IMG/VR virus record: IMGVR_UViG_3300005534_000013
Location: 2,387 to 66,386 of that record
Length of the DNA stretch: 64,000 nt
Direction: 5' to 3' (one strand)
Origin: a virus
Below the pieces are notes generated by a model that was given only the letters and a program-made list of their open reading frames with translations, was not told where the DNA came from and did no database searches. Positions 6,830 through 22,454 of the stretch are shown one piece after another; within the stretch, counting starts at the first letter, position 1, and every line of letters begins with the position of its first letter. The position numbers were made by a program, and so were the translations under genes.

Positions 6830-6858
6830 ATTTGGGTCGAATCTGACCCAAATTTGGG
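6830..6858. repeat. overlapping inverted repeats (ATTTGGGTC-N6-GACCCAAAT plus palindrome CCCAAATTTGGG)
   Basis: read directly; intergenic, upstream of the packaging genes. Confidence 0.6.
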
Positions 6859-7069: not shown

Positions 7070-7321
7070 ATGGACTGCCCCGCAATGTCCCAGGTGATCG
7101 TCTCCTACCGCTGCGCCTGCATGATCGAAGAAGCGACCCTGACGGTCCGCGAGCGCGGTCCCCGCGAGGACATCGTTGACTGGATGGAGGGCGCCGTGCA
7201 GATCGCGCTGACCGATGATCATCGTTCTCGCTCACCCCGATGCCGGAACGAGGCCATGGACTACGCGAAGATTTTCTACGACCAAGATCGCCGCATCGGC
7301 GACGCTTCGAGGCGGTCATGA
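7070..7321 (+). CDS. hypothetical protein
   Basis: ORF coupled to next gene; start may be ATG7085. Confidence 0.5.
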   Translation: MDCPAMSQVIVSYRCACMIEEATLTVRERGPREDIVDWMEGAVQIALTDDHRSRSPRCRNEAMDYAKIFYDQDRRIGDASRRS

Positions 7322-7497
7322 AGAAAGTCAACAGGCGCTGGGCCTGGTGGGCCGAGGATGAGGACGACGCAACCCCGCCCACTCAGCCGATCATGCTCGA
7401 CGAGCCCCAGCCTCCGAGGTGGTCCGGCCTCTACAATCACAGGGGCGAGAAACTCTACATAGCCCCGGAGCCTTTCGGGTTTCGGCGGACGAGATAG
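7318..7497 (+). CDS. hypothetical protein
   Basis: MKKVNRRW...WSGLYNHRGEKLY. Confidence 0.5.
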   Translation: MKKVNRRWAWWAEDEDDATPPTQPIMLDEPQPPRWSGLYNHRGEKLYIAPEPFGFRRTR

Positions 7498-7502
7498 CCA
7501 AG

Positions 7503-8048
7503 GTGGCACGGGCTCCCAAACCGCTCCCAAAAGAGATTCTGCCGACTGGGCTTGACCTAGAGAAACTTGGCATTCCCCGAGATGTCGTCGCTCGGGGGCG
7601 CCCAAGCAGCTATGAACCCGAATTTTGCCGTGAGGTCATCGATCTCGGGATGCAGGGCAAGAGCCGGACCTACATGGCCGCGTACATTGGAATCGATCGT
7701 GTGACCATCGCGGCTTGGGAGGCGGCGCATCCAGACTTTGCCCTCGCGATGAGTCGTGCCCTCAGTCTCTCACAAGCATGGTGGGAAGACGCCGGACAGA
7801 AGGGGATGCGGACCGCGCCCTTCAATTCTCACGCTTGGTCACGCTCGATCTCAGCTCGCTTCTCCGATGAGTGGCGGGAAAAAAGCTCTACCGAGTTGAC
7901 GGGCAAGGACGGCGGCGCCATCCCGGTGCGCTTCGAGAGCCTCACCAATGCCCAACTCGCAAGTTTCCTTGGACGTCTCAGTTCTGAAATCGATCAGGGC
8001 GAGGGCGCAGGCGGAACTGGATCGGAGACGCCGCAAGTCGATCGATGA
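7503..8048 (+). CDS. terS: terminase small subunit
   Basis: GRPSSYEPEFC...WEAAHPDF...ELTGKDGGAI; directly upstream of TerL; start uncertain. Confidence 0.8.
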   Translation: MARAPKPLPKEILPTGLDLEKLGIPRDVVARGRPSSYEPEFCREVIDLGMQGKSRTYMAAYIGIDRVTIAAWEAAHPDFALAMSRALSLSQAWWEDAGQKGMRTAPFNSHAWSRSISARFSDEWREKSSTELTGKDGGAIPVRFESLTNAQLASFLGRLSSEIDQGEGAGGTGSETPQVDR

Positions 8049-9573
8049 GCTGCTGGTCTACGAGACCGATCCCGTCGGCTTCGTAGAGAACTGGCTCTAC
8101 GGCTTCCTCTGGTCCAAGCAGCGCGCGATCTGCGAGAGCGTGGCGAAGAACCGCCAGACCGCGGTCCCGAGTTCGCACGATACTGGCAAGAGCCTCGTGG
8201 CCGCGATGATCGCCTGCTGGTGGATCGCCTGCCATGAGCCCGGCGAGGCCTTTGTCGTCACCCTCGCGCCCACGGCGGCCCAGGTCGACGCGATCCTCTG
8301 GCGCGAGATGAACCGCATCCACAAGCAGGGGCGCCTGCCTGGCCGGATGATGACCCGGATGTGGCGGCTCGATGATGGCGAACTTGTGGGCTTCGGGCGC
8401 TCGCCGGCCGATACCGATCCGACCGCGGCGCAGGGCATCCACGCCAAGTACGTACTCTGCATTTTAGACGAAGCGTGCGGAATCGCGAAAATGATCTGGG
8501 ACGCGGTCTCGTCCCTCGTGGCGAACGACTACAGCCGCATCCTCGCGATCGGGAACCCCGACGATCCCTCGACCGAGTTCGAGGCCGTGTGCCGGCCGGG
8601 TTCAGGCTGGAATGTGATTCCGATCTCGGCCTTCGATTCGCCGAACTTCACCGATGAGGAGGTGCCGGACTTCCTCCGCCCGCTCCTCGTGGGCAAGACC
8701 TGGGTCGAGGAGCGCAAGCGTAAGTGGGGGGAGGAGAGCCCGCTCTATCTCGCCAAGGTGCTGGGCCGCTTCCCAGATCAGGCAGCTGACGGACTCATTC
8801 CCTTGGGGGCGATCACGGCCGCGGTGACGCGCCGGCTCTTACCGGGACCCGAGAACGAACTCGGCGTCGACATCGCCAGGTACGGGGAGGATTCGACTGT
8901 CGTCTACCATCGCCTCGGCCCCGTGGCGCGCCGGGTCCGCAAATTCGGCAAGCGGAGCACCATGGTCACCGTGGGCGAGATCATCGACGTGCTGCGCGAG
9001 ACCGGCGCCAAGGTGGTGCGGATCGATGACACCGGCGTCGGGGGCGGCGTCACCGACCGCCTCGAGGAGTTGCAGGCGGGCAAGGACACCTCGGAGGGCG
9101 GCCTCGCGGCCAAGCGCCTCCTCTACGGCGTCGACATCGTGGCGGTGAACGTCGGCGAGCGCCCGACCGTCATGCCCCCGCCCTCCGCCACCCGCGGCAG
9201 TCCCGGCAAGCAGCCCGAGCGCCGCTTCACCGAGACCGAGCGCTACGTCCGTCTCAAGGATCAGCTCAACTGGGCTCTGCGCGAGCGCTTCATCGCCGGC
9301 GACATCGACCTCGTGGGCCCGGAAGAGGACCAGGATCAATCCGACGACATCCAGGCCCAGGCGGCCGATATCAAATACTCCCTCACCTCGACGGGCCAGA
9401 TCCAGATCGAGAGCAAGGACGAGATCAAGAAGCGCGGCCGGCCATCGCCAGACGACTGGGATGCCCTGGTGCTCTGCTTCGCGACCGCGACGCGGAAGAA
9501 GCGCTTGGCGATCGACCCGTCCATCCTGCAGCAGTCCCGGATGATCCCGGCGCGCCGCGGATATGGACGCTAG
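7948..9573 (+). CDS. terL: terminase large subunit
   Basis: Walker A HDTGKS, Walker B ILDEA, IGNP, nuclease GVDIARYGED and SPDDWDAL. Confidence 0.92.
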   Translation: MPNSQVSLDVSVLKSIRARAQAELDRRRRKSIDELLVYETDPVGFVENWLYGFLWSKQRAICESVAKNRQTAVPSSHDTGKSLVAAMIACWWIACHEPGEAFVVTLAPTAAQVDAILWREMNRIHKQGRLPGRMMTRMWRLDDGELVGFGRSPADTDPTAAQGIHAKYVLCILDEACGIAKMIWDAVSSLVANDYSRILAIGNPDDPSTEFEAVCRPGSGWNVIPISAFDSPNFTDEEVPDFLRPLLVGKTWVEERKRKWGEESPLYLAKVLGRFPDQAADGLIPLGAITAAVTRRLLPGPENELGVDIARYGEDSTVVYHRLGPVARRVRKFGKRSTMVTVGEIIDVLRETGAKVVRIDDTGVGGGVTDRLEELQAGKDTSEGGLAAKRLLYGVDIVAVNVGERPTVMPPPSATRGSPGKQPERRFTETERYVRLKDQLNWALRERFIAGDIDLVGPEEDQDQSDDIQAQAADIKYSLTSTGQIQIESKDEIKKRGRPSPDDWDALVLCFATATRKKRLAIDPSILQQSRMIPARRGYGR

Positions 9574-9877
9574 GCCATGGGTCTGCGACGCTCGCGGGCG
9601 CGAGTCGTGGGGCCGGGCGGAGATGAGCAGGATGCGCGATCTGAAATTGGCGTTCTCGGTGCATGAGCTCCTGAAGCCCGAAGACGAGACCCGCGCTGAC
9701 CTCTTCGGTCGGCATGAGACCCACTTCCGGCTGACCGGCAATCCGAAGATGGACCGGGAGATCATCGACGCCGTGGGCCTGATCGTCGCCCGCTGGCTCT
9801 GCATCCAACTGGGCGTGCCTTCGCGGGCCGAAGCCGCAAAGGCTCAGTTGGCCGAACTGGGCCTCGTGGCCGAATGA
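9563..9877 (+). CDS. hypothetical protein
   Basis: ORF between terL and portal; start may be ATG9623. Confidence 0.5.
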   Translation: MDARPWVCDARGRESWGRAEMSRMRDLKLAFSVHELLKPEDETRADLFGRHETHFRLTGNPKMDREIIDAVGLIVARWLCIQLGVPSRAEAAKAQLAELGLVAE

Positions 9878-11673
9878 CCAAGGCCGAGCGCAAAGCCGCG
9901 CGGAAGGTCCGCAAGACCGAGGCCCGGGCCCGCCGCGAGGCGCTGAAGCCGGCGCCCGCGGTCTCGATCCTCCAGGGCGGCAAGAAGGGGATGCAGATCC
10001 CCGCCGGGACGCTGGCCCGCAGTCGGATCAAGGCCGGGATGGTGACGGCGGAGCAGTTCCTCGCCGTCCCGCGGCCGCCGCCGGGCGTGTTGCCCGATGG
10101 CTTGAAGAACAAGGCCAACCCCGTGCTCGCGATGGACGAGCAGGCCGAGGAGATGTCGGTCTGGGCCGCGGGGACCTGGGCCTCGGGGTGGTTCGATGGC
10201 CCGCTCTTCAAGGGGTATCCGGCCCTCTCGCTCTTCGCCGCGCTGCCCGAGTATCGCCGCATGGCCGAGGTGCTCGCGACCGAATGCACGCGGCGCTGGA
10301 TCAGGATCGGGGCCGCAGACTCGAACGACAAGGCGAAGCTCGAGAAGGTCACGAAGCTGGAGACCGAGCTCAAGCGCCTCGATCTCCGCGGCGCGATGCG
10401 GCGCCTGATCGAGCAGGACGCCTTCTTCGGCGTTGCGCACCTCTACCTCGATGTCGGCACTGATCCCGATGACCGCGACGAGCTCGCGCAGTCGATCGGC
10501 AACGGGCGCAATGAGGCCACGCGGACCAAGTTCCAGGGCAAGACCGACTTCCTCCGCGGCCTCAAGCCTATCGAGGCCGTGTGGTGCTACCCCTCGAAGT
10601 ACAACGCCACCAACCCGCTGCGCGATGATTGGTACAAGCCCCAGACCTGGTTCTGCCAAGGCAAGGAGATCCACTCGACGCGGCTCATGACCTTCGTGGG
10701 CCGCGAGGTCCCGGACCTCCTCAAGCCCGCCTATATGTTCGGGGGCATCAGCCTCTCGCAGCTCATGCAGCCTTATGTCGACCGCTGGATCTCGGTGGTG
10801 GATTCGGTTGCCCGCCTGTTGCTCTCGTTCTCGACCTCGGGAATCGCGACCAATCTCGAAACCATCCTGAAGCCCGAGGCAGACTCGCAGGGCATCTTCG
10901 ACCGCGTTGAACTCTTCAACAACATGCGGAACAACTTTGGCGCCATGCTCCTCGACAAGGACACCGAGGAGTTCTTCCAGTTCAACACGCCGCTTTCAGA
11001 ACTCAAGGACCTGATCACCAAATATCAGGAGTTCCAATGCTCCATCAGTGGCGAGCCGGTCGTGAAGTTGCTTGGCATACAGCCCGCTGGGCTCAATGCC
11101 TCGTCGCAGGGTGAGATCACTTCTTGGCTCGATTGGTGCGAGGCCTTTCGGGAGAAGTTCTGCGCCGCCCCGCTGACGACGATCATCGACTTCGCCCAAC
11201 TGAGCCTCTTCGGCGAGATCGACCCCGACATCACCTGGACGTGGGAATCGCTCCGCAGCCTCGATCCCAAGGAGGAGACGGAGCGCCGCAAGGTCCAGGC
11301 CGAGATGGATGCGGTCTACATCGAGGACGGGGTCTTCCTCCCGCAGGAGATCCGCATGGGCCTCCTGGCCGATCCGGAGAGCCCCTACTACGGACTCGAG
11401 GAGCTGACGCCCGACATGCCCGAGGGGCCCGAGGGTGGGGGCGTGGTCGATCCGGACATGGCCGAGGAGTTCCCGCAGCTGGAGGCTCCGCCGGCGGGCG
11501 CGGGCGGGGCGCTGAGCGAACTCGGTGGGGTGCGCATCGACCCGCAGGCGCGGCGGGCGGCGGGCGGCGCGCCAGACCGGGATGGCCCGCGCCGGCCAGA
11601 TGGCGAGGACCCCCGGACCGCGAGGCGCGCGCCGCGTGAGAGCCGCCAGCGCCAGCGGGAGCCGGCCGAATGA
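9874..11673 (+). CDS. portal protein (DUF1073-type)
   Basis: position after terL; IHSTRL, YMFGGISL, PVVKLLGIQPAGLNASSQGE motifs. Confidence 0.85.
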   Translation: MTKAERKAARKVRKTEARARREALKPAPAVSILQGGKKGMQIPAGTLARSRIKAGMVTAEQFLAVPRPPPGVLPDGLKNKANPVLAMDEQAEEMSVWAAGTWASGWFDGPLFKGYPALSLFAALPEYRRMAEVLATECTRRWIRIGAADSNDKAKLEKVTKLETELKRLDLRGAMRRLIEQDAFFGVAHLYLDVGTDPDDRDELAQSIGNGRNEATRTKFQGKTDFLRGLKPIEAVWCYPSKYNATNPLRDDWYKPQTWFCQGKEIHSTRLMTFVGREVPDLLKPAYMFGGISLSQLMQPYVDRWISVVDSVARLLLSFSTSGIATNLETILKPEADSQGIFDRVELFNNMRNNFGAMLLDKDTEEFFQFNTPLSELKDLITKYQEFQCSISGEPVVKLLGIQPAGLNASSQGEITSWLDWCEAFREKFCAAPLTTIIDFAQLSLFGEIDPDITWTWESLRSLDPKEETERRKVQAEMDAVYIEDGVFLPQEIRMGLLADPESPYYGLEELTPDMPEGPEGGGVVDPDMAEEFPQLEAPPAGAGGALSELGGVRIDPQARRAAGGAPDRDGPRRPDGEDPRTARRAPRESRQRQREPAE

Positions 11674-11999
11674 AAATCCTCAGTCCGGTCCTCGGGCAGT
11701 TCGCCAACGGTGAGTATGCCTGGTGGTGCCCTGGGTGCCGCCATGCGCATCACGTCCCGACCGGCGGAGGCCCGCATCCGATCTGGCAGTTCAACGGCAA
11801 CGTCGACCGGCCCTCGTTCACGCCCAGCGTGCGACATTTCCTTCCGGCCGATGAGCATGGGCCCGAAGGCACCTTCTGCCACTACATCATCACCGACGGG
11901 CAGATCGGCTTCTGCGGCGACTGCACGCACGCGCTGAATGGTCAGACGGTGCCGATGGTCCCCCTGGCCGATCACCAGGACTATGGGTGGCCAGACTGA
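11670..11999 (+). CDS. Cys/His metal-binding protein (DUF6527-like)
   Basis: WCPGC..H...WQFNGNVDRPSFTPS...CHYIITDGQIGFCGDCTH. Confidence 0.7.
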   Translation: MKILSPVLGQFANGEYAWWCPGCRHAHHVPTGGGPHPIWQFNGNVDRPSFTPSVRHFLPADEHGPEGTFCHYIITDGQIGFCGDCTHALNGQTVPMVPLADHQDYGWPD

Positions 12000-12183
12000 T
12001 GACCGCGCAGCCCCTGCAGCCTTGCAAGGATCACGATCCGAGCCGCCGAGTCGCGGGTGATGGGTCTTGTCTGAGGTGCGGCGCCGAAACGGGCGAACGT
12101 TGCCGGGAGAATGGCGCGCGCGGCGGCACTGGGTGGGGTGAACCCTTCGGCGCTGGGCCGCCCGATTATCCGAAGCGGGCGGG

Positions 12184-13188
12184 GTGGTGATGGCCCTCGT
12201 CCGCACCCCCGAGGAGCTTCGCATCGCCGATCTGGAAGCCGAGTTGACGCGCACCCAGTACGCGCTGGCCACGGTGCGCGGCCGGGCGAAGAAGGCCCAC
12301 CAGGTCGACGGCGAGCGGATCACCGAGCTTGAGGGCCAGCTGAAGCTCGCCCAGGACGCCAAGCCCAAGCCGGCCAAGCCGGGGCGCCCGGCCAAGCTGC
12401 GGCCCGTGCAGCCCAACGCCGGGCTCGAGGCGTGGCTACGGAAGCGTCTGGAACGCGAACTCGCCTCCATGGACCGCTCGATCCGCTGGTGGGTGCGCGC
12501 GGCCTACCGGAAGCATCTGGAAAGGATCGAGATCGCGCAGGACGCGGCGCCGGCCGATCTCCTGCAGCGCGTCCTCGCGGCGCTGCGGCGGCGCTGGGGG
12601 CGGCGCTTCGACGCCCTGGGGGAGGAGATCGCGGAGCGCTTCGCCAAGCGGGCGGGCGACCAGACCGACGCGGCCATGACCGCGGCGCTCCGGGCCGCCG
12701 GGATTCGCGTGAAGTTCCAGGCCAGTCAGGCCCAGCAGGATCAGCTCGCGGCCGCGATCCAGCAGAATGTCTCCCTGATCAGGAGCATCCCCGAGCAATA
12801 TCTGACAAGCGTCGAGGGCGCGGTGATGCGCTCCGTGCAGGCCGGCCGGGACCTGGGCGCCCTGACCTCCGAGCTGCGCGCCGCCTATGGGGTGAGCTAT
12901 CGGCGCGCGGCCTTCATAGCTCGCGACCAAAATGCGAAAGCCACCGCCTTCCTGACCCGCACCCGCCAGGTCGAGCTCGGGATCCAGACCGCCCAGTGGG
13001 TCCACTCAGGCGCCGGCAAGGAGCCGCGGCCGAGCCACGTCAAGGCCGGCCGGGACCGGATCGTTTACAACGTGGCCGAAGGCTGGCTTGATCCCGCCCT
13101 CGGCAAACGAATCTGGCCGGGCACGGAGCCGAACTGCCGATGCACCAGCCGGAGCATCATCGCCGAACCGATGGAGGAGGCTGCATGA
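12184..13188 (+). CDS. minor head protein (MuF/SPP1 gp7 family)
   Basis: RAAFIARDQ, WVHS..PRPSH, PGTEPNCRC. Confidence 0.88.
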   Translation: MVMALVRTPEELRIADLEAELTRTQYALATVRGRAKKAHQVDGERITELEGQLKLAQDAKPKPAKPGRPAKLRPVQPNAGLEAWLRKRLERELASMDRSIRWWVRAAYRKHLERIEIAQDAAPADLLQRVLAALRRRWGRRFDALGEEIAERFAKRAGDQTDAAMTAALRAAGIRVKFQASQAQQDQLAAAIQQNVSLIRSIPEQYLTSVEGAVMRSVQAGRDLGALTSELRAAYGVSYRRAAFIARDQNAKATAFLTRTRQVELGIQTAQWVHSGAGKEPRPSHVKAGRDRIVYNVAEGWLDPALGKRIWPGTEPNCRCTSRSIIAEPMEEAA

Positions 13189-13697
13189 GGTGGTTTCGTG
13201 GGGGCGCGATCGCCCTCCTGGCGTCGCTCGCCGTAGCCCTTCCCGCCCAAGCGGTCACACCGCCGGCGACCTGGAACCCCAGCCAGGGCGTGCTCACCGC
13301 CTGTTACGACAACACCGGCGCGCTCACGAGCTGCGCGGGCGGGGGTGGAGGGAGTGGGAATCCATCAGCCCCCGTCTCCACCAGCTCCCTCGCGACCTCC
13401 AAGGTCATCACCGCGAGCGCCAATAAGGCGCTGGTGAGCTTCGAGGTCAACGCCGATGTTACGCTCGCGGGAGCGGCCTGGTGGGTGTTGGTCCTCAACG
13501 CCACCTCGGATCCCGGGAATGGCGCGGTGGTGCCAGTGAAGTGTTACGGCGTGCCTTCTGGAACGTCACAGGTGGGCGGGACCTTCGGCTCCACCGGGGT
13601 GACGTTCTCGACCGGCATCACCATTGTCGTCTCGACCACCGGCTGCTTCACCGAGACGCAATCGGCGCACGCCTTCATTTCGGGTGATTTCCAATGA
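13185..13697 (+). CDS. signal-peptide-bearing beta-rich protein
   Basis: MRWFR + hydrophobic core + AQA cleavage site; GAGGAGG RBS; poly-Gly; 4 Cys. Confidence 0.8.
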   Translation: MRWFRGGAIALLASLAVALPAQAVTPPATWNPSQGVLTACYDNTGALTSCAGGGGGSGNPSAPVSTSSLATSKVITASANKALVSFEVNADVTLAGAAWWVLVLNATSDPGNGAVVPVKCYGVPSGTSQVGGTFGSTGVTFSTGITIVVSTTGCFTETQSAHAFISGDFQ

Positions 13698-14767
13698 TGC
13701 GCTGGATCGCACTGGCGCTCGCGCTGCTCGCCGGACCGGCGCTGGCCCAGCAAACGGGCGGCGGTGGTGGTGGCGCGACGACTTTCGCAAATCCGACAGC
13801 CGTGGTCGGCGCGAGCGCGGTCAATGGGTCGGCGACCACCGCCATGCGCTCCGACGCCGCGCCCCCTATCGATCTGACGTTCTCGCCGACATGGACTGGA
13901 GCCCATACCTGGGCGCTCGGAACGATCACCACGAACATCAAGGCCATCAACATAACCGGCACGTTCAACAATGCCGCCACCACGTTCGACGCGCCGCTGT
14001 TTATGAACATCACAAACACAGCTTCGCACGGCGGCACGCTTCTGGCTGATCTCCAAGTCGGTAGCAATTCTGTGTTCAGCGTGGATTTCAACGGAAATTT
14101 GTTATTCGGTGGAGCATTAAGGACCGGGAGTGTTGGGGCTGTAAGCGCTGGCGGTAATGTCTTTGCTGGATTGGACGATAATACCAGGGGACAAATTCTT
14201 TTCGGGACCGCTTCAGATGCGCGTCTCCTTCGTCGGGGTGCAAATAGCATCCAATTAGGCGCATCAGACGCGGCGACGGCGGTCGCGCAGACCTTCGGCG
14301 TTCAGGGCGTTGTGGCGGGCACCTCGAACACCGCTGGCGCGGACTTCACCATCGCGGGGTCACAGGGCACGGGCACCGGCCTTGGCGGTAAGTTGGTCTT
14401 CCAGACAGCGCCGGCTGGGACCACCGGAACGGCGCAGAACGCCGAACAGGCGGTCCTCTCCTTGGACGCCAACTCGCATGCGAAGTTCTCCAGCGCGGCC
14501 ATCCCGACCATCGGCACCTGTGGGACCGGCTCTCCGACGATCACGGCCGGCTCGACGGATGTGGCCGGCGAGGCCACCATCGGCACGACGGCTACCGCCT
14601 GCACGATCAGCTTCAAGATCGCCTATGCGGCTGCGCCCTTCTGTGTGGTCACGGACAAGACGAACCTCTCGCACCTGACGTCCTATACGATCTCAACGGC
14701 GGCTATCGTCCTCACCATGACCTCGAACTCTGGGGACGTGATCGAATACGTCTGCTCCGGGGCTTAG
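13694..14767 (+). CDS. signal-peptide-bearing fibre-like protein
   Basis: MMRWIALALALLAGPALA|QQTGGGGGG; Thr/Gly beta-rich; C-terminal domain with 4 Cys. Confidence 0.8.
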   Translation: MMRWIALALALLAGPALAQQTGGGGGGATTFANPTAVVGASAVNGSATTAMRSDAAPPIDLTFSPTWTGAHTWALGTITTNIKAINITGTFNNAATTFDAPLFMNITNTASHGGTLLADLQVGSNSVFSVDFNGNLLFGGALRTGSVGAVSAGGNVFAGLDDNTRGQILFGTASDARLLRRGANSIQLGASDAATAVAQTFGVQGVVAGTSNTAGADFTIAGSQGTGTGLGGKLVFQTAPAGTTGTAQNAEQAVLSLDANSHAKFSSAAIPTIGTCGTGSPTITAGSTDVAGEATIGTTATACTISFKIAYAAAPFCVVTDKTNLSHLTSYTISTAAIVLTMTSNSGDVIEYVCSGA

Positions 14768-14775
14768 GATCGCCC

Positions 14776-16380
14776 ATGTTCTTTCGATCTGCCCTCGGCG
14801 TCTGTCTTGCCTTCCTACTCGCCGTTGGCGCGAACGCTCAGGCTGTAGGCGGTGGAGGTGGCGGTGTTGGCACGTCTGTCTTCCCGACCATCGTGGACAA
14901 CGTGGCGGCGCTTCGGACCACGAACCTCACCGGCAAGGGCAACGACATCACGCTCACCTCCTACTACACGGGAGGACTCACGGGCGGCGGACCGCTCCAG
15001 CTTGTTGGTTCCGACACCACCAGCACTGACAACGGCTGCACGATCTTTGTCGATAGCGCCGGCAACCGCTGGTACCGCCAGATCGGGCCGGCGGGCCTCG
15101 GCGTCGATCAGTGTGGCGCTAAGGGCGATGGGACAACCGACGACACCACCAAGGTTCAGGCGGCGATCAATCTCGCCTGCGCCAATCCAAATACCGCCGC
15201 CTTCCCGATCACCATCCCGCCCAGCTTCACGCTCGGGATCACCGCCGCTCTGAGTTTCAAGGGTTGCTACAGCCTGGTATTCGGCGGCACTACCGGCGTA
15301 AGCTCATCGACCCATACGCCGCAGATCAAGTGGATCGGCACCGCCGGCGCTGGGCCGATGCTTTCAGTCAATCAGACGGATACCGGGACCTTTCACCACT
15401 TCGTCCTTAGCGATCATGTCGCGACCCCTGTTGATGTGGTGATCGAAGACACCGAAACCGGGTCGATTACGACCACGAACACCACCAATCAATTCGATGA
15501 CATCTACATTGCCGGTCCTATAACGGCTGACGGCAACTTTGTCGGTATTCGGATTGGCCAGGGAGATGTTGTCGGAAACGCCGACATCGGCCGCTTCGAT
15601 AAGATCACCATCAACTGCGGTGGCGCTGCTCCGACCACCAATACGTCCAACGGAGTTGGCTTCCGCTTTGTCTCATCCTCCGCCGAACCTTTCGTTGATC
15701 GCATTACCAACTACACGATCGTTGGATGCAGCAGGGGCATAGACGTCGAAGGTCAGATCAGCGTCCTCGTGATGGACGGTGGGAACAATACCGTCAACTA
15801 CACCGACCTCTACGTGACTGGCGGTGAGAATATACTCTTCGAGAACCTGAGGAGCGAGAATGCGATAGGGCCGCCGGTGGACATTGAGGGCGGGAACAAT
15901 GTTACTCTGTTCAACGACACTCTCGCCGGGGTGTGCGCGACCTGCACGGGGATCGTCGACAACATCCAGGGCAACGGCGAGCTCATCATCGACACGGTGA
16001 ATGTCGAGGGCTCGTCGGGCTTCACCTTTATGACCAACGCGGCGGGTGGCAGCACCCAGACGACCATCCGCAACTCGCAGTTCCCGACCGGCGGTTGCCC
16101 GACTTTTGGGGGCTGGGCCGGCACCATCGTCTCGACCAACAATTACCCCAACAGCGGCTCCAAGTGCGCGAACACGATGTCGAACACGTCGTTCACGGTG
16201 GGGAGCTGGATCGTTGCTCAGCTCCCGAGCGGTACCGACGTCCACACCGGCGAGATCGCCCTCGTAACGGACGCCAACGCCAGCTGCTCGGCCGGCACGG
16301 TCCCGACCGGGGGCGGGACGCACAAGTGCTTCGTCGGCTATGGGGGCACGAGCTGGACCGAGAACGGGAGCGGGAATTGA
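14776..16380 (+). CDS. signal-peptide-bearing tailspike-like beta-helix protein (pectate-lyase-3-like start motif)
   Basis: signal peptide ending ANAQA, then GGGGGG; VDNVAALR..YY..GGG N-domain; GAKGDGTTDDT..QAAI. Confidence 0.82.
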   Translation: MFFRSALGVCLAFLLAVGANAQAVGGGGGGVGTSVFPTIVDNVAALRTTNLTGKGNDITLTSYYTGGLTGGGPLQLVGSDTTSTDNGCTIFVDSAGNRWYRQIGPAGLGVDQCGAKGDGTTDDTTKVQAAINLACANPNTAAFPITIPPSFTLGITAALSFKGCYSLVFGGTTGVSSSTHTPQIKWIGTAGAGPMLSVNQTDTGTFHHFVLSDHVATPVDVVIEDTETGSITTTNTTNQFDDIYIAGPITADGNFVGIRIGQGDVVGNADIGRFDKITINCGGAAPTTNTSNGVGFRFVSSSAEPFVDRITNYTIVGCSRGIDVEGQISVLVMDGGNNTVNYTDLYVTGGENILFENLRSENAIGPPVDIEGGNNVTLFNDTLAGVCATCTGIVDNIQGNGELIIDTVNVEGSSGFTFMTNAAGGSTQTTIRNSQFPTGGCPTFGGWAGTIVSTNNYPNSGSKCANTMSNTSFTVGSWIVAQLPSGTDVHTGEIALVTDANASCSAGTVPTGGGTHKCFVGYGGTSWTENGSGN

Positions 16381-16454
16381 CCCCGCTTCAACTGCCGGCG
16401 CAAACGCGATAGCGTCGCCGGGACCGACTCACATCGCAAGGCGGGGGAAACCGA

Positions 16455-17351
16455 ATGCCAGGCATGAGCGACTACCTCGCCGAGGCCGCCACCAACCTTA
16501 TGAGCGGCCAGGCCGCGGCGCCGGCGCTTGGCAACCGATTCCTCGCTCTCTTCACCGCGATGCCGACCAGCGACGCCGGGACGGGTGGGACCGAGGTCTC
16601 GGGCGGCGGCTATGCCCGGGTTCAGGTCGCGGGCTCCGCGGCCACGAACGGGACCACGGCGAGCGGCAACGCGACCCTGCACTTCGCCGCCACGCCCGCC
16701 TGGATCGTCGCCGGGATGACGGTCAACGACACCACCGCGGCCGTGGTCCCGGCCGGGACCACGGTGCTCTCGACCACCGGCACCACTGTCGTGATGTCTC
16801 AGAACGCCACGGGGGGCGGCGTCGGGAGCGGCGACACGATCGTCTTCTCCGCCTGGCCGGCCTCTTCGGCCTCGTCCGGGACCGAGCCCAGCGTCACCCC
16901 CGTCACCGCCACCAACGGCGCGGTGATCACGTTCGCGCAGGCGAGCGCTTCCTGGGGCACGGTGATCGGCTTCGGGATTTACGACGCGGTGACGGCGGGC
17001 AACCTCCTCGGCCTCGACTACCTGGGGAACTTCTCCTGGCTCCCGTGCTCGATCTCCGCCGCCTCGCCGGGCGTCATCACGACGCACGCCCATGGCTACT
17101 CGGCGGCCGACCCCGTGGTCTTCACCTCCAAATATGGGGGCACGACCCCGACGTTCAGCCAGTCGAACCTCACCGGCGTTCTCGTCGTCGTGAGCCCCGC
17201 GACCGACACCTTCACGGTGACGAACGGCGGCACTGCGGTCAACACCTCGGGCACCGGCGACATGATGGTGCGGAAGATCGTCCAGCAGTCGATCCCGATC
17301 AACGTCACGGCCTCCTTCGCCGCGAGCACGCTGACGCTCAACGTCGCGTAG
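16455..17351 (+). CDS. putative filament/fibre structural subunit with two inserted beta domains
   Basis: MSDYL...ALFTA.P...TEVSGGGYARV...WGTVIGFGIYDAVTAGNLL core; ISAASPGVITTHAHG insert. Confidence 0.7.
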   Translation: MPGMSDYLAEAATNLMSGQAAAPALGNRFLALFTAMPTSDAGTGGTEVSGGGYARVQVAGSAATNGTTASGNATLHFAATPAWIVAGMTVNDTTAAVVPAGTTVLSTTGTTVVMSQNATGGGVGSGDTIVFSAWPASSASSGTEPSVTPVTATNGAVITFAQASASWGTVIGFGIYDAVTAGNLLGLDYLGNFSWLPCSISAASPGVITTHAHGYSAADPVVFTSKYGGTTPTFSQSNLTGVLVVVSPATDTFTVTNGGTAVNTSGTGDMMVRKIVQQSIPINVTASFAASTLTLNVA

Positions 17352-17371
17352 AGGCGGGAGGGCCAGATCCC

Positions 17372-18250
17372 GTGTCCTTCGTCATCGGCGACCGCGTTCA
17401 GGACACCGCGAGCGCGGTCTCGGGCACGACCGTCACCCTGAACAACAGCCCGCCCGCCGGCGGCTATCAGTCGTTCAACTCCGGGATCGGGGACGGAAAC
17501 TCGACCTTCTACTGCATCCTCGATGGGACGCACTGGGAGGTGAGCTACGGGGCGTACACGAACTCCGGCGCGACCCTGGCCCGCGCTGCGACCCCGATCA
17601 GCTCCTCGAACGGCGGCTCCCAGGTCGTCACCTTCTCGGGGACGATCAATGTGTTCTGCGTCGACCCCTCGGTCTATCTCACCGCGGCGTTCAGCGGCCG
17701 GGCGAGCGGGCGCGTCTACACGAACAATCTCGGGGCCTTTAGCGCAGGGAACACACGGGCCCTCGCCACCGGAACAGTCTGGTACATGCCGGTCTTCATC
17801 GGCCAGCCGTTCTCCAGCGTCGTCCTGCACTTCAATCTGGCGAGCGCCTTCGCGGGCACATCGACCGTCGACATCGGTCTCTACTCGAATCTCAATGGCG
17901 CGCCGAACGCCCGACTGGGTCAGCAGACCGGGATCAACACCGGCACCGGGGGGAGCACCGGCGATAACGCGACCTCGACCATCACCCCGAGCGCGCCGCA
18001 GCCACCGGGCTGGTACTGGCTCGCGATCGTCTCCCACACGAACGGTCCGACGCTCGTCTATTGCAACGATAACTCGTCGATCACCTCTTTCGGAGCGGTG
18101 ATCAACATGGGTCAGAGCTCGACAGCCGATGGGAACCAGCCGAGTGGTTGGCAGCAGACCAGCGCCACCCTGCCTAGCACCGCCGGTTCGCTCAGCGCGA
18201 TCGGAGGTAGCGGCGCTTGCCCAGCCCTCGGCGTAGTGGCGACACTCTGA
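17372..18250 (+). CDS. putative fibre tip / receptor-binding protein
   Basis: GTG start after GGGAGGG; DRVQDT...WEVSYG...SSSNGG..V.F..VFC N-domain; beta-sandwich-like C-terminus. Confidence 0.7.
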   Translation: MSFVIGDRVQDTASAVSGTTVTLNNSPPAGGYQSFNSGIGDGNSTFYCILDGTHWEVSYGAYTNSGATLARAATPISSSNGGSQVVTFSGTINVFCVDPSVYLTAAFSGRASGRVYTNNLGAFSAGNTRALATGTVWYMPVFIGQPFSSVVLHFNLASAFAGTSTVDIGLYSNLNGAPNARLGQQTGINTGTGGSTGDNATSTITPSAPQPPGWYWLAIVSHTNGPTLVYCNDNSSITSFGAVINMGQSSTADGNQPSGWQQTSATLPSTAGSLSAIGGSGACPALGVVATL

Positions 18251-18756
18251 TGGGCCAGCGAAGCGTCATCCACCTCGCGGACGCGAATGGCGTCTCGACC
18301 GGCGAAGTCGAGATCATCGACACCCGGACGCTGGCCGACGCGCAGGGCGAGGCGCTGGCCCGCCTCGCGTCCCTCTTCATGGTCACCGATGGGGGGATGG
18401 CGGGCTCTCTGATCGATGCCGGGCTCACGATCACGATCGAGGGCTCGACGAAGCTCTACCAGATCGACGACGCCTCGCGGGCCAACATCGCGGGCAAGGC
18501 CACCCAGGCCGCGCTCTCGCTCATCGCGGGGACGAACATCAACTGGCCGCCGAACTCCGTCTGGATCACCGCCGACAACTCCACCCAGGCGCTCAGCGCC
18601 GCTGATATGGTGCTCCTCGGGGTCACGGTCGCGAACTACGGGACCGCCCTGGTGATCAACGCGCGGGCTCTGAAGGACGAGATCCTGGCCCTCACCGCGG
18701 TCGCGGACTGCGATGGGTTCGACGTCACCCAGGGCTGGCCGAGCTCGTCTCTCTGA
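18250..18756 (+). CDS. DUF4376-like fibre assembly protein
   Basis: YQIDDASRANI...WITADNS...ALKDEI...W. Confidence 0.7.
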   Translation: MGQRSVIHLADANGVSTGEVEIIDTRTLADAQGEALARLASLFMVTDGGMAGSLIDAGLTITIEGSTKLYQIDDASRANIAGKATQAALSLIAGTNINWPPNSVWITADNSTQALSAADMVLLGVTVANYGTALVINARALKDEILALTAVADCDGFDVTQGWPSSSL

Positions 18757-19730
18757 TGCCGGCCTTCTCGCCAGTCTCGGGCGCGCCGGTCTCCTCCCTC
18801 GGCGGCGGCACGGTGCTCCTCCACGCGACCTTGCTCAGCACCGCGCAGCTCCGAGGCTCGGCTACTGGCGCCGCGGCCTTGGCCGGGACGGTGCGGAGCG
18901 CCACGCGGCTCCGGGGAGCGGCCACTGGGGCCGTCCCGCTGGCCGCGCAGCTCTTGGCGCTGATGCGCGGGACCGCCGCCTCGTCGGGTGTCGTGCCCCT
19001 CCAGGGGACATTGCGGGCGCGGGCCGCTGCGGCGGCGGGGTTCCTCGCGACCGCGGTGATGGTCGGGCGCCTGGCCGGCGGGGCGACGTTGCGCGCCTCT
19101 GCGACGCTGGCCGGCGCGCTGAGCGGACGGCTCGCGAGCGCCTCGAGTCTCCGGGCCAACCCCCGGGGCGTCGTCTCTCTGGCTGGAACCCTGGTCGCCC
19201 AGGGGACTTCCCGGGGAGCCCTGACGGGGCGCGCGGCGATGACCGCCCGCCTCCTCGGCGCGGCGCGGATCACGGCCGGGATCTCGCGCAACGATCGCGT
19301 CCAGCTGACCGCTACCCTCATGGCCGCAGCGCGGATGCGGCCCGGGATCGCGCTCACGGCGCCGCTGAGCGCCACCCTGCGGGCCCAGGCGACGGCGCGC
19401 GGGGCCCTGACCCCGACGGCGAACCTCTCGGGCCGGCTCCTGAGCGGCACGCGCCTCCAGGGCGTCTCGGGCCAGGTCGCGGCCCTGCAGGGCCAGCTTC
19501 TCGCCCGCGCCCAGGCCAAGGCCTCGATGGCCGGCTCGGCGGCGCTCCGGGGGCAGCTGACCAGCGGCGCCCAGGGCCGAGCCGGAGGCCCCCTCGTGCA
19601 CTTGGCGTTGGCCGCCACGCTGCTCGCGGCCGCGCGGATGCTCGGCGCGCTCAACTTCCCGCTCCGCTTGCGCGGTAAGGTCACGGTGAGCGATACGATC
19701 TCGGCCAAGGTGATGGTGAGCGACGAATGA
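18756..19730 (+). CDS. Ala/Gly/Arg-rich protein with ~20-aa repeats
   Basis: about 14 degenerate 20-residue repeats; TGATG coupling. Confidence 0.7.
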   Translation: MPAFSPVSGAPVSSLGGGTVLLHATLLSTAQLRGSATGAAALAGTVRSATRLRGAATGAVPLAAQLLALMRGTAASSGVVPLQGTLRARAAAAAGFLATAVMVGRLAGGATLRASATLAGALSGRLASASSLRANPRGVVSLAGTLVAQGTSRGALTGRAAMTARLLGAARITAGISRNDRVQLTATLMAAARMRPGIALTAPLSATLRAQATARGALTPTANLSGRLLSGTRLQGVSGQVAALQGQLLARAQAKASMAGSAALRGQLTSGAQGRAGGPLVHLALAATLLAAARMLGALNFPLRLRGKVTVSDTISAKVMVSDE

Positions 19731-20026
19731 GCAACACCTACGAGATCGACACCCTCGTCCAGCTGACCTCGAACTTCACCCTCGGGGACGGGGTGACGCC
19801 GATCGACCCCACGACGGTCACGCTCTACATCAAGGACCCGGGGGACAACGAGACCGTGGTGCCGGGCGATCTCCTGACCCACGTGAGCACCGGGGTGTTC
19901 GGCTACGACGTGAACGTCAACGTCTCGGGCTGGTGGACGTACAAGTTCCAGGGAGCGGGGAACATCGAGGTCACGAGCCCCGACACCCGGTTCCTCGTCA
20001 ACGCCTCGATCCTGATCCCGGGCTAG
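19727..20026 (+). CDS. small Ig-like beta protein
   Basis: IDPTTVTLYIKDP...STGVFGYD...SGWWTYKFQG. Confidence 0.65.
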   Translation: MSNTYEIDTLVQLTSNFTLGDGVTPIDPTTVTLYIKDPGDNETVVPGDLLTHVSTGVFGYDVNVNVSGWWTYKFQGAGNIEVTSPDTRFLVNASILIPG

Positions 20027-20035
20027 GAGGCCGTC

Positions 20036-21271
20036 GTGCCGCTCAAAGAGGGTTCGAGCCAGGAGACGATCAGCGCCAACATCGCGACCGAAATCCGCGC
20101 GGGCAAGGACCCCAAGCAGGCGGCAGCGATCGCCTACAGTGAAGCCGGGAAGAGCAAGGACGCGGGCGTTGCGCTCGACGATCAGGAAGAGACCGACGTA
20201 CACGACGCGGCGGGGATCATCTTCCGGGCGCCGGATGGCAAGGTCTTGTTCCTGCGGCGCGACAGCCAGGCGAACAACCCCGGGCAGTGGGATTGGCCCG
20301 GCGGCCACCTCCAGGCGGGCGAGACGCTGCTCGACGGCGCGATCCGCGAGGCCCACGAGGAGACCGGCTACCTCGCGGATCCCGAGGAGGTGACCCCGGT
20401 CTCCCGCGCGATCGTGAACGACGTCGACTTCTCGACCTTCATCTGCCCGGTCGACAAGAAATTCACGCCCGACATCGGCCGCGACGAGGACGGGCACCGG
20501 GAGCACGACGACTGGCGATGGGCCGATCCCCGGGACCCGCCCGATCCCCTCCACGAGGGCGTCGAGGAGGTGCTGAGCAACAAGCTCGTCGACGAGATCA
20601 ACGAGGCGACGCCGGAGGCCGAACCGGTCTTCAGCGAGGATGGGTGGGCGGTGCTCCTGGCCGCGCTCGAGCAGGACGACGTGCTGGCGCTCGATCAGGA
20701 GACGGTGCGGAGCTACGACGCCGACGGGCGTCTCCACGTGAGCCTGACCCCGATCACCAAGGCGAATATCTGCCCCTATGTCGGCAAGGAGATTCCCAAC
20801 TGGGAGAAGCTTGGGCTCAAGCCCGAGAAGGTCTACCGCCTGCTCCGCGCGCCCGAGGAGATCGAGAAGGCGGCCGCGACCTCGAACGGGGTCCCGCTCC
20901 TCGCGGTCCACAAGGCCACGAGCGCCGACCGGCACCCGAGCAGCCTCGTGATCGGCGCCGTGGGGAACGATGCGGTCTGGCAGGCCCCCTACCTCTTCAA
21001 CAGCCTCGTGATCTGGCCCGCCGAGGCGATCGAGGGCATCGAGAGCGGGGAGAAGGTCGAGCTGTCGAGTTCCTACCGCTACGACGCCGACATGAGTCCC
21101 GGGACCTTCGAGGGCCGGCCCTACGATGGCGTGATGCGGAACCTGGTCTTCAACCACGTCGCGCAGGTCGAGGCCGGGCGCGCGGGACCCGATGTCGCGG
21201 TGGCTGATTCGCTCCGTCCTGAGGTCAAGTGGGCGCTCGTCGAGCAGGCCCTGCAGTCGTTCTACGCCTAG
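20036..21271 (+). CDS. NUDIX hydrolase fused to DUF2213 (putative prohead protease)
   Basis: Nudix box GGHLQAGETLLDGAIREAHEETG; DUF2213 motifs ITKANICPY, ELSSSYRY, NHVAQVEAGRAG. Confidence 0.85.
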   Translation: MPLKEGSSQETISANIATEIRAGKDPKQAAAIAYSEAGKSKDAGVALDDQEETDVHDAAGIIFRAPDGKVLFLRRDSQANNPGQWDWPGGHLQAGETLLDGAIREAHEETGYLADPEEVTPVSRAIVNDVDFSTFICPVDKKFTPDIGRDEDGHREHDDWRWADPRDPPDPLHEGVEEVLSNKLVDEINEATPEAEPVFSEDGWAVLLAALEQDDVLALDQETVRSYDADGRLHVSLTPITKANICPYVGKEIPNWEKLGLKPEKVYRLLRAPEEIEKAAATSNGVPLLAVHKATSADRHPSSLVIGAVGNDAVWQAPYLFNSLVIWPAEAIEGIESGEKVELSSSYRYDADMSPGTFEGRPYDGVMRNLVFNHVAQVEAGRAGPDVAVADSLRPEVKWALVEQALQSFYA

Positions 21272-21362
21272 ATGTTGCCCTGCGGAGCGCTCCCGACCCC
21301 TACTATTGGCGCCGCGGTGGACTCGTGTGTTATTTAGGGCGAAGCCCCGGGGAGGGCTGTGA

Positions 21363-22454
21363 ATGAATCCGCTTCAGGCGGCGTTGCGACAGAAGTACGG
21401 GACACCCGAGAAGGCCCTCGAGGCCCTCGGCCTCCCCGTGACACTTCTCGCCGCCGACGAGGCCGGCGCCCATCCCGACCCCGCCCAGAGGAGATCTCCG
21501 AAAATGGCTAAGCTGTCCGCGACTGCGCTCCGCGTCCACGCGGCCCTGCAAGCTCTTCTGGCGCCGAAGCTCGCGGCCGATGCGAAGCTCGATCTCGTGC
21601 CGGCGGTCCAGGGGGTGACGAAGAAGAATCTCCACTCCGCGACTACGCGGGCGCAGATCTGGGCCAGGGCCAAGCAGTGCGCGAAGGACCAGCTCGCGAT
21701 GGACGAGGCGGGCCCCGATGACGTCGCGATGCGGATCCTCGACATGATCGATCGCGAAGCGCCGGCCGAGGAGCCGGAAGCTGGGCCCGCGGGCCCGGCG
21801 CCCGATGAGGGCACGGTGACCGATCCCAACGCCGCCGTGCCGGCGGCCGCCGCCGCGAAACCCGCCGAGGAAGACCCCCGCGCCGCCAAGCCGGACGCTG
21901 AGCCCGAAGGGGTGCATGAAGGCGAGCCGGATCCCGAGAAGCTCAAGATGCTGGCCGAGAAGCTGGGCGGCGACGCCGAGCTCGCGAAGGCCTGCTACGA
22001 CATCTGCCTCGGCGGGGCCAAGGACGAGGGGCCGGCGGCCGAGGCCGAGGAACCCCGGACCGAGACGGCGGTCGACAGGAACAAAGCCAAGGACGAGGAG
22101 GCCCCGATGCTCAAGCCAGCGATGGACGCGGCGATCAAGACTGCGGTCACGCAGGCGAAGGAAGACATGCGCGCCGAGGCGAGGTCCGCCCAGGAAGCGC
22201 GGTCGTTCGTCCGCCCCTGGGTGGGCGAGGTCGCGCCCGCGTTCGACACCGCCGAGGAAATCCTCAAGGCGACGCTCGAGTCCCTGGGGGTGAAGACCAA
22301 GGGGGTCCACCCCAGCGCCTACCGGGCGATTCTCGAGAACGTCCCGCGTCCCGGCGCGTCGAAGCGCCTCGCGATGGACAGTGAGCCGAAGCGCGGCGGC
22401 AGCGACATCGCGAAGCGCTTCCCCCACGCGGCCCGCATTCAGGTTCTCGGCTAA
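21363..22454 (+). CDS. capsid scaffolding protein
   Basis: acidic, Ala/Pro-rich; between protease and capsid genes; possible second start near 21503. Confidence 0.7.
   Translation: MNPLQAALRQKYGTPEKALEALGLPVTLLAADEAGAHPDPAQRRSPKMAKLSATALRVHAALQALLAPKLAADAKLDLVPAVQGVTKKNLHSATTRAQIWARAKQCAKDQLAMDEAGPDDVAMRILDMIDREAPAEEPEAGPAGPAPDEGTVTDPNAAVPAAAAAKPAEEDPRAAKPDAEPEGVHEGEPDPEKLKMLAEKLGGDAELAKACYDICLGGAKDEGPAAEAEEPRTETAVDRNKAKDEEAPMLKPAMDAAIKTAVTQAKEDMRAEARSAQEARSFVRPWVGEVAPAFDTAEEILKATLESLGVKTKGVHPSAYRAILENVPRPGASKRLAMDSEPKRGGSDIAKRFPHAARIQVLG

Follow-up and report, generated by a model that had tools for sequence, protein, structure and literature searches.

A trio of genes for predicted Sec-exported, cysteine-paired fibre-, jelly-roll- and tailspike-like proteins in the late operon of an uncultured tailed phage

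Results

Three consecutive genes encode predicted Sec-exported proteins

The DNA analysed here is a stretch of 64,000 nucleotides (the window) that runs from position 2,387 to 66,386 of the IMG/VR virus record IMGVR_UViG_3300005534_000013 and makes up nearly all of this 66,386-base record, which CheckV rates 100% complete and IMG/VR classes as linear. Family scans of the window genes (Pfam, PHROGs) indicate a contractile-tailed phage. Our subject is a trio of consecutive plus-strand genes, ORF1, ORF2 and ORF3 (ORF, open reading frame), that lie directly 3′ of a MuF-like head morphogenesis gene (Table 1). The ATG of ORF1 overlaps the MuF stop codon (ATGA) and is preceded by GGAGGAGG, the ATG of ORF2 overlaps the ORF1 stop codon in the same way, and the start of ORF3 is preceded by AGGA.

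Each of the three N-termini has the features of a substrate of Sec and signal peptidase I, namely a basic n-region, a hydrophobic h-region and small residues at positions −3 and −1. ORF1 begins with MRWFRGGAIALLASLAVALPAQA followed by V, with a predicted signal peptide of residues 1-23 and a predicted cleavage site after AQA; ORF2 begins with MMRWIALALALLAGPALA followed by Q (residues 1-18, site after ALA), and ORF3 with MFFRSALGVCLAFLLAVGANA followed by Q (residues 1-21, site after ANA). These assignments come from a home-made rule and not from SignalP. The rule asks for a 10-residue stretch with a Kyte-Doolittle hydrophobicity of 2.0 or more, one or more K or R ahead of that stretch, no D or E, and small residues at −3 and −1; the gene calling was likewise home-made and crude. 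Six of the 74 ORFs called in the window pass the rule, and in the structural module ORF1 to ORF3 are the only ones. When six such genes were placed at random among 74, a run of three arose with P ~0.02 in a simulation that covers this window only, and the homologue comparisons presented below weigh more than this value. No lipobox or membrane anchor was found in ORF1 to ORF3, and past the hydrophobic segments no in-frame ATG, GTG or TTG is preceded by a Shine-Dalgarno match. With a Shine-Dalgarno site or an ATGA overlap at the called starts, the true starts do not appear to lie further downstream.

The trio shares two further features. A G5 run is located at residues 52-56 of ORF1, and G6 runs are located at residues 22-27 of ORF2 and 25-30 of ORF3, which in both cases corresponds to positions +4 to +9 of the mature chain. 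The cysteines are C40, C50, C120 and C154 in ORF1 and C276, C303, C317 and C354 in ORF2; ORF3 has 13, of which C10 falls within the signal peptide, so that the mature chain has 12. A first-pass annotation, made by a model from the sequence alone, had drawn attention to three signal-bearing genes after MuF with glycine runs and mature cysteine counts of 4, 4 and 12, and all of these observations are confirmed in the sequence. Pfam and PHROGs scans gave no match for ORF1 or ORF2, and an NCBIfam scan of ORF1 to ORF8 returned nothing.

Signal peptides and even cysteine numbers are kept in the three protein families

A word-indexed search with ORF1 returned 117 proteins at E <= 0.001, one of which is the window's own protein with a longer N-terminus. 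The signal rule is passed by 99 of the remaining 116, and most of the other 17 have, by eye, a hydrophobic segment behind an over-long called N-terminus. Cysteines in homologues were counted after residue 25, an approximate cut, and an even, non-zero number was found in 98 of the 99 signal-bearing ORF1 homologues. The protein consists of the signal peptide, a linker that holds C40, C50 and the G5 run, and a C-terminal jelly-roll (residues ~60-170) with C120 and C154, both of which are invariant across an alignment of 38 sequences. The structural model (mean pLDDT, the predicted local distance difference test score, 84; above 93 over residues 61-170) shows a disordered linker followed by a jelly-roll beta-sandwich. 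In BFVD it matches many uncharacterised phage proteins, the best being U6C862 of Ralstonia phage RSK1 (E 7e-8), and the nearest ESM Atlas clusters are 87-100% viral. Fold searches of the PDB (Foldseek, VIA wide) yielded generic jelly-rolls at noise level only (E >= 0.017, Z <= 6.5), among them TNF/C1q, carbohydrate-binding modules, viral cement proteins, Ena subunits and XepA; we therefore rejected the naming of a fold family for ORF1. Profiles of the ORF1 and ORF2 families gave chance-level rows only against PDB sequences. In tblastn searches of the phage record collection, ORF1 and ORF3 found no relative and ORF2 found one metagenomic record (33% identity).

ORF2 combines the signal peptide and G6 run with a fibre-shaft region, which holds the motif AGTSNTAG...GTGTG..G...FQTAPAG conserved in its family, and a C-terminal domain of ~90 residues with the four cysteines. 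A search gave 309 proteins at E <= 0.001, and the figures that follow refer to the best 120, that is, 119 homologues. The signal rule is passed by 31 of these, including the nearest full-length ones (P0013, P0015, P0018, P0022 and P0037). The other 88 mostly have familiar fibre N-termini, such as MANLEVIALDTVTPQ..., MADIDLKTETPDTTLP... and MADTKISALT..., with N-terminal overhangs and different C-termini. All 31 signal-bearing relatives have an even, non-zero number of cysteines (median 6; 1.27 per 100 residues), and they mostly keep the four-cysteine C-terminal domain, 24 of 31 being aligned to its end; some of them also carry Peptidase_S74. Among the signal-less relatives 59 of 88 have no cysteine or one, and the density is 0.37 per 100 residues. 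The first ~105 residues of ORF5, a fibre protein encoded downstream in the window, are homologous to the N-terminal domain of the signal-less fibres of this family (BLASTP: 37% identity and E 2e-12 with a fibre from viral locus L054; E 5e-6 with P0047). Judged from these alignments, the N-terminal module in the ORF2 family is either a fibre domain or a predicted signal peptide.

For ORF3, the word-indexed search found nine homologues. By eye, a signal peptide is present in the six closest of these (25-53% identity) and absent from the three weakest. An exhaustive search yielded 1332 representatives (E <= 0.001); our figures are drawn from the best 150, which we sorted by hand on the aligned range into 27 that share the body and 120 that share the N-terminal module only; three short fragments were dropped. 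The signal rule is passed by 21 of the 27 body relatives, several of the other six being visibly truncated, and by 25 of the 120 that share only the N-terminal module. Cysteine numbers are even in 23 of 24 signal-bearing body relatives, and the lone exception has an over-long N-terminus with one cysteine inside its signal peptide. Four cysteines (C135, C164, C441 and C464) do not vary in six ORF3 relatives.

These results indicate that a predicted signal peptide is conserved in all three families and is paired with an even number of cysteines, which argues that the export signal is real. The expectation that homologues would keep the signal holds for ORF1 and the ORF3 body, and for ORF2 it holds in about a quarter of the homologues, the rest having fibre N-termini; the expected coupling of even cysteine numbers to the signal was borne out in all three families. 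The suggestion that the polyglycine run is a conserved hinge or docking tag did not survive, since a run of at least four glycines within the first 70 residues is present in only 15 of 99 signal-bearing ORF1 relatives and 6 of 31 signal-bearing ORF2 relatives.

A tailspike-like beta-helix is predicted for ORF3, which has cellular relatives in exopolysaccharide loci

ORF3 consists of the signal peptide, the G6 run, an N-terminal module (residues ~35-140), a body formed by a right-handed beta-helix and, at the C-terminus, the short motif LPSG..G.IALVTDA...GGG..KCFVGYGGTSW. Its N-terminal module (residues 40-149) matches PHROGs named EPS (exopolysaccharide) depolymerase and tail fiber, and a beta-helix start motif, CGAKGDGTTDDTTKVQAAINLAC, is present at residues 113-135. 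A model built from a 12-sequence alignment is a long beta-helix (mean pLDDT 69), and Foldseek placed it against 78 PDB entries at E <= 0.001, headed by phage tailspike depolymerases. The best match is CBA120 TSP2 (E 2.8e-9), and the list also contains K2-2 TSP, RbmB, AlgE4 and WceF (6tgf, E 2.6e-6). Thus, ORF3 models as a tailspike-like, right-handed parallel beta-helix, and the tailspike-like start recognised in the first-pass annotation agrees with both the model and the fold search. In the alignments D344 and E361 are nearly invariant, which makes them candidate catalytic acids only. As a separate observation, a C-terminal motif, LP...G....VTD......GGG.....Y.DGTNW, is common to ORF3 (~484-529) and the proteins P0003, P0005 and P0006. 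It resembles a motif at the ends of fibre proteins of alphaproteobacterial phages and gene transfer agents.

When ORF3 alone was compared with viral contigs, five pattern matches were obtained and none was confirmed. A scan of species-representative genomes identified 49 loci, four of them with long matches (E 2e-25 to 2e-31), all in metagenome-assembled genomes (MAGs) of Acidobacteriota. In the three Acidobacteriota loci that were scanned, the ORF3 relative lies among glycosyltransferase genes, and in two of the three it is adjacent to a Wzy-like gene. According to the Pfam scan, in L006 and L007 the ORF3 relative lies directly 3′ of a Wzy-like polymerase gene and is surrounded by genes for GT4 glycosyltransferases, methyltransferases and asparagine synthase; in L004 it is located between methyltransferase, glycosyltransferase and transposase genes.

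Signal-bearing gene clusters recur in other viruses

A profile of the signal-bearing ORF2 relatives detected 79 viral loci with 79 matching ORFs, of which 10 pass the signal rule and another two look signal-bearing by eye. Runs of consecutive signal-bearing, cysteine-rich genes occur in several of them: three genes just ahead of lysis genes in L058, six or seven ahead of the terminase gene in L117, and further runs in L053, L104, L122 and L124. A profile of ORF1 relatives detected 64 viral loci, and the matching ORF was called in 49. Of these ORFs, 25 satisfy the rule, and the number rises to 37 when translation may begin at an internal Met. Among the 92 ORFs that immediately adjoin ORF1-family genes, 26 satisfy it, as compared with 45 of 781 other ORFs (odds ratio 6.4, Fisher P 5.5e-10). 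In L140 about seven signal-bearing genes stand in a row and include an ORF3 homologue, a twin-arginine-like protein and a Peptidase_S74 protein; L145 and L146 have four or five in a row, and L147 has the gene order of the trio's first two members, ORF1-like then ORF2-like. The cluster-bearing loci span a GC content of 0.42-0.66. Pfam matched only 3 of 33 mostly signal-bearing cluster proteins from these other viral loci (S74, tail collar and DUF4183), and the DUF4183 match is on an 878-residue protein of L058 that itself lacks a signal peptide. ORF1-family genes often adjoin tail-fibre genes in viral contigs, for example in L148 and L162. A side observation concerns L140, where an 830-residue protein within the signal-bearing run (10769-13261) starts with MNRRAFLAGSSAIALMPTPAIAF, which looks like a twin-arginine translocation (Tat) signal.

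The trio lies in a probable cargo hot spot

The trio is located between the MuF and prohead protease genes, in a gap that also holds ORF4 to ORF7 (16455-19730), which are fibre-like and signal-less, and ORF8. Its G+C content at third codon positions (GC3) is 0.81 in ORF1, 0.74 in ORF2 and 0.77 in ORF3, as compared with 0.81-0.89 in the terminase, portal, DUF6527 and MuF genes and 0.85-0.98 from ORF4 to the capsid genes. In two relatives of the phage the trio is absent: L002, with a MuF protein 65% identical, has MuF, a 91-residue ORF and then the protease gene, and G001 (MuF 45% identical) has MuF, a 76-residue ORF and the protease gene. We considered the 91-residue ORF of L002 as a counterpart of ORF8 and rejected it for lack of any likeness. 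G001 does have an ORF1-family gene, of 589 residues and signal-bearing, after its head-completion genes, at the place where the window has the endonuclease VII / HNH-like gene, which suggests a second cargo slot in the lineage. As an aside, a Nudix-like stretch in G001 is apparently fused to the portal and not to the protease (L197, 104-3223, reversed map). Of 401 genomes sampled from a single class, to which a Sphingomonas MAG belongs, 3 have a related capsid gene (40-49% identity). Gene order could be read in two of these three: in one it is portal, an 81-residue ORF and protease, and the other, the prophage G216 (L203, C1:1779000-1798900), has ~10 kb of small genes of low GC3 (~5670-15260) between portal and protease. 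Many of these small genes look like paralogues, with N-termini such as ...YYGGRTYVN... and ...FTERTHVNTLDDHN....

Between 11500 and 20200 we found no promoter-like site, in a scan for the sigma-70-type consensus only, and four terminator-like sites against 3.3 expected from shuffles, none of which flanks the trio. Repeats around the cassette were short, chance-like pairs only. Because of the GC3 values, the junctions in L002, G001 and G216, and the lack of a promoter or of a terminator excess, we conclude from the sequence that the portal/MuF-protease junction is probably a cargo hot spot, and that the trio is putatively recent, dispensable cargo read with the late genes. The trio had at first been assigned to the head module, an assignment that is not upheld, given that the relatives pass from MuF through a small ORF to the protease gene and that the GC3 of the trio is atypical.

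Gene order and other features of the record

The remaining structural genes are listed in Table 1. At the nucleotide level, 7948-22454 had no match in the phage record collection, a tRNA scan of the window found none, and tyrosine and serine recombinase families had no match anywhere in the 66-kb record. ORF7 has a gene GC content of 0.77 and loosely repeated 33-nt units, and matches no family. A plus-strand gene at 43891-45357 encodes a GT2 glycosyltransferase fused to a sulfotransferase, and through this locus the phage may also alter host surface glycans; of the two minus-strand genes that adjoin it (43156-43521 and 43528-43845), one encodes a signal peptide and the other a lipobox (LLGLGAC). 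Elsewhere, a DnaB-type helicase gene (59755-62184, plus strand) is split by a LAGLIDADG-type domain and has an intein-like appearance, and an early-region gene (1706-2887, plus strand) encodes a papain-family cysteine protease domain (PF00112, E 1.7e-9).

Table 1. Genes of the structural region of the window, with positions counted from its first nucleotide.
Feature	Positions	Strand	Basis or remark
Large terminase	7948-9573		family scan
Portal	9874-11673		family scan
DUF6527 gene	11670-11999		family scan
MuF-like head morphogenesis gene	12184-13188	+	PF04233, phrog_324; upstream flank; stop overlaps ORF1 start
ORF1, 170 aa	13185-13697	+	
ORF2, 357 aa	13694-14767	+	
ORF3, 534 aa	14776-16380	+	
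ORF4, kin of podophage GP4 fibre I gp80, no signal peptide	16455-17351	+	PF23140 E 2.7e-20; GC3 0.94
ORF5, fibre protein, no signal peptide, GTG start codon	17372-18250	+	
ORF6 (DUF4376, tail-fibre-type PHROG matches) and ORF7	18217-19730	+	no signal peptide; GC3 native-like
ORF7, 324 aa, Ala/Leu/Gly-rich	18756-19730	+	
Nudix domain fused to DUF2213 prohead protease	20036-21271	+	Pfam/PHROG; downstream flank of variable gap
Scaffold	21363-22454		family scan
XM1-gp53-like minor capsid protein	22492-23463		family scan
Major capsid	23505-24650		family scan
Endonuclease VII / HNH-like gene, 10 Cys	27579-28250	+	between head-completion and tail genes
DUF3383 sheath	28988-30910		family scan
Tube	30911-31345		family scan
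Baseplate J	36528-37973		family scan
gp53-like tail fibre	38551-39486		family scan

Discussion

The interpretation that we favour, with a probability of about one half, is that ORF1 to ORF3 are exported, disulfide-bonded cargo, composed of a depolymerase and lectin-like accessory proteins, that acts off the virion on the surface polysaccharide of the host. The three proteins would be made late, alongside the head genes, as a cargo cassette and not as parts of the head. As their sequences suggest, each pre-protein would pass through Sec across the inner membrane, be cut by signal peptidase I at the AxA site and form its disulfides in an oxidising compartment. ORF3, on the basis of its model, may be a tailspike-like beta-helix glycanase of the same kind as the enzymes of bacterial Wzy-type exopolysaccharide loci. 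ORF1, with its jelly-roll, and ORF2, with its fibre shaft and four-cysteine tip, might be binders of sugars or surfaces built from phage-fibre modules, each having a signal peptide where a virion fibre would have its N-terminal domain. The proteins would act on the host's own surface polysaccharide, on the periplasmic side and then, after lysis, as free and stable proteins, by cutting or covering capsule, EPS or O-antigen. In this way progeny would presumably escape being trapped by, or lost to, the dying cell and its remains, and the matrix that surrounds cells nearby might be loosened.

The first-pass annotation had proposed exported, oxidatively folded adhesins or depolymerases, and the conserved signal, the even cysteine numbers and the tailspike-like ORF3 model support a prediction of this type. 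It offered two destinations, docking on the capsid and action off the virion. We favour the latter, since in the ORF2 family the signal replaces the fibre domain and that domain is found in the window on ORF5; docking itself is neither favoured nor contradicted by the data.

Several points weigh against the cargo interpretation. The signal rule and the gene calling are home-made and crude, and the proteins are known here from sequence. The Pfam match of ORF3, PF12708, covers residues 110-148 only, with E 9e-4 and 19.5 bits, below the 27-bit cut-off, and the ORF3 model is middling (pLDDT 69, TM 0.3-0.5). The term lectin-like for ORF1 and ORF2 is based on fold class and context, neither having a characterised relative. 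In L147, the gene that follows the ORF1-like and ORF2-like pair is beta-helix-like by motif and apparently starts without a signal peptide. The term periplasm assumes a diderm host, and the link to a host is through the 3 of 401 genomes with a related capsid gene. Lysis frees soluble periplasmic proteins anyway, so that export could serve folding alone, which would also fit docking on the virion. Finally, the tight coupling to the head genes also fits a virion role.

One alternative, which we consider unlikely, is superinfection exclusion or receptor masking, in which exported fibre-like proteins would bind and block the receptor of the phage itself or of its rivals and not degrade it. The T5 lipoprotein Llp, an exported phage protein, blocks the receptor, and the trio could by analogy do the same. 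The trio does have modules of the receptor-binding type behind export signals, ORF1 and ORF2 lack an enzyme signature, and the frequent position of ORF1-family genes beside tail-fibre genes (in L148 and L162) would suit such a role. However, ORF3 is enzyme-like, the lack of a promoter of its own within the late operon would bring the trio late for exclusion, and the proteins lack a lipobox or membrane anchor that would keep them at the envelope.

A second alternative, to which we assign distinctly little probability, is decoration of the virion by way of the periplasm, in which the proteins would fold oxidatively outside the cytoplasm and dock on the head or side fibres only at lysis as extra adhesins or depolymerases. 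Translational coupling to the head genes, the adjoining fibre genes ORF4 to ORF7 and the make-up of the trio from fibre, tailspike and jelly-roll modules are consistent with this scenario, as are the signal-bearing proteins with a tail-collar or S74 chaperone domain in viral contigs and the weak ORF1 jelly-roll matches to phage cement and turret proteins (Z ~6, within the noise range of the tool). A virion fibre, however, is expected to have an N-terminal particle-attachment domain and no signal peptide, and the trio presents the opposite: no virion-binding domain was recognised, the ORF2-family signal replaces the fibre N-terminal domain, and the ORF2-family fibre domain is on ORF5. Furthermore, the polyglycine "tag" is not conserved, phage relatives either lack the trio or have such genes elsewhere, and genes for baseplate, tail fibre and side fibre are already present in the phage. 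We know of no precedent in tailed phages for virion decoration routed through the periplasm, nor was one met in the parts of the literature that were available to us. If docking after lysis were true, it would constitute a new assembly route.

A broader version of this idea, which strikes us as just as doubtful, is that tailed phages of uncultured soil or water bacteria route a set of cysteine-rich fibre, jelly-roll and tailspike proteins through Sec, and that these do not associate with the particle, or with one another, until lysis has occurred; in one variant, ORF1-type jelly-rolls with a cysteine linker would polymerise into disulfide-linked fibres in the manner of Bacillus Ena. The fold match of ORF1 to Ena subunits is weak (Z 5.8-6.2). 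Were joining after lysis true, the last step of virion assembly would be extracellular and disulfide-dependent.

Another scenario that we regard as quite improbable is that the trio consists of lysogenic-conversion morons, that is, host-derived EPS-remodelling genes that help the lysogen through biofilm dispersal or chain-length control and have no lytic role. The atypical GC3, the cellular ORF3 relatives in EPS loci and the related capsid genes in bacterial genomes would be expected on this account, and ~5% of prophage carbohydrate-active enzymes (CAZymes) are reported to have signal peptides (PMC13507307). Of the two marks of a moron, the trio has the atypical composition and the absence from close relatives (L002 and G001), and it does not have its own promoter and terminator: no promoter-like site was found and terminator-like sites are not above shuffles. 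Moreover, the 66-kb record, rated 100% complete, has no tyrosine or serine recombinase, ATGA overlaps tie the trio to MuF, and the nearest ORF1 clusters in the Atlas are 87-100% viral. An artefact of mis-called starts or uncleaved anchors, with even cysteine numbers by chance, has next to no probability in our estimation: although the signal peptides were judged by the home-made rule only and the run of three has a P of ~0.02 for this window alone, hundreds of homologues on other contigs keep the signals at the protein level, cysteine numbers are even in 98/99, 31/31 and 23/24 relatives, and every start is marked by a Shine-Dalgarno site or by an overlap.

Phage fibres and tailspikes are usually held to be cytoplasmic, signal-less parts of the virion. 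Here fibre, jelly-roll and tailspike modules appear in what may be a second guise, exported, cysteine-paired, clustered and recurring across many uncultured phages, and neither the ORF1 nor the ORF2 family matches a Pfam, PHROG or NCBIfam model or has a solved relative. If the cargo interpretation holds and the proteins, acting as free enzymes, destroy or mask the receptor from inside, a release and anti-trapping function would be added to the phage repertoire, and the clusters would be a source of naturally stable, secretable depolymerases. In addition, a signal peptide together with an even number of cysteines would offer a simple, computable mark by which "tail fibre" annotations could be sorted into virion and non-virion proteins. 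In a paper on phage targets of diversity-generating retroelements, the lack of signal peptides was taken as support for phage origin (PMC6199706).

Comparison with known systems

The closest counterpart of ORF3 is WceF of Pantoea stewartii, an exported tailspike-like trimeric glycanase of the stewartan cluster that leaves through the Tat pathway and whose knockouts have longer stewartan chains (PMC7949094). Like ORF3, WceF has a right-handed beta-helix of the tailspike type and an N-terminal export signal, and its setting in an exopolysaccharide cluster is matched by the closest cellular ORF3 relatives in Wzy-type loci. It differs in that its signal is of the Tat and not of the Sec type and that the identity is 13% in the structural alignment; ORF3, for its part, is phage-borne, lies inside a late operon and is known here from its gene and model. 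The best fold matches of ORF3 (E 2.8e-9 to 5e-6) are the virion tailspikes CBA120 TSP2, Klebsiella K2-2 TSP, Acinetobacter Fri1 gp49 and the Sf6 tailspike. Virion tailspikes have an N-terminal particle-binding domain and no signal peptide, whereas ORF3 has a signal peptide directly ahead of its module, 12 cysteines and a gene outside the tail module.

Phage-like fibres behind a signal peptide are known from the MAT fibres of Bdellovibrio bacteriovorus, chromosomal proteins of this predator of ~1000 residues with a beta-rich domain, conserved and ~130 residues long, directly after the signal peptide and swappable tips (TNF-like, lectin, beta-sandwich and S74 chaperone; PMC10769870). The kin of ORF2 resemble them in having fibre modules behind a signal peptide, and Peptidase_S74 is also found in some ORF2 relatives and in the L140 protein. 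Compared by description, ORF1 and ORF2 differ from the MATs in being short, phage-encoded and cysteine-rich.

Exported phage proteins are also known from lysis and exclusion. Llp, XepA and the signal-peptide endolysin Lys44 of phage fOg44 (PMC6116005) resemble the trio in being phage-encoded and sent through Sec in the lytic cycle, but they belong to other families with other roles, and none is a fibre, jelly-roll or beta-helix. XepA, the exported protein of PBSX (PDB 6i56), is a weak fold match of ORF1 (Z 5.3, rank 33) that lies within noise, and a lead to it in the Atlas remained below our bar. A survey of prophage CAZymes found SignalP signals in 5% (3261 of 64,678; PMC13507307), so that exported phage-borne glycan enzymes are already on record as a class. 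The trio differs from the surveyed enzymes in that it matches no curated family above threshold, is clustered, and belongs to the late operon of a record that lacks an integrase. In the portions of the literature that we could consult, we met no description of clusters of Sec-exported fibre, jelly-roll or beta-helix proteins in the late operons of tailed phages. Exported tailspike-like glycanases (WceF), Bdellovibrio fibres, signal-peptide endolysins and signal-bearing prophage CAZymes are already on record, and it is beside these that the trio takes its place.

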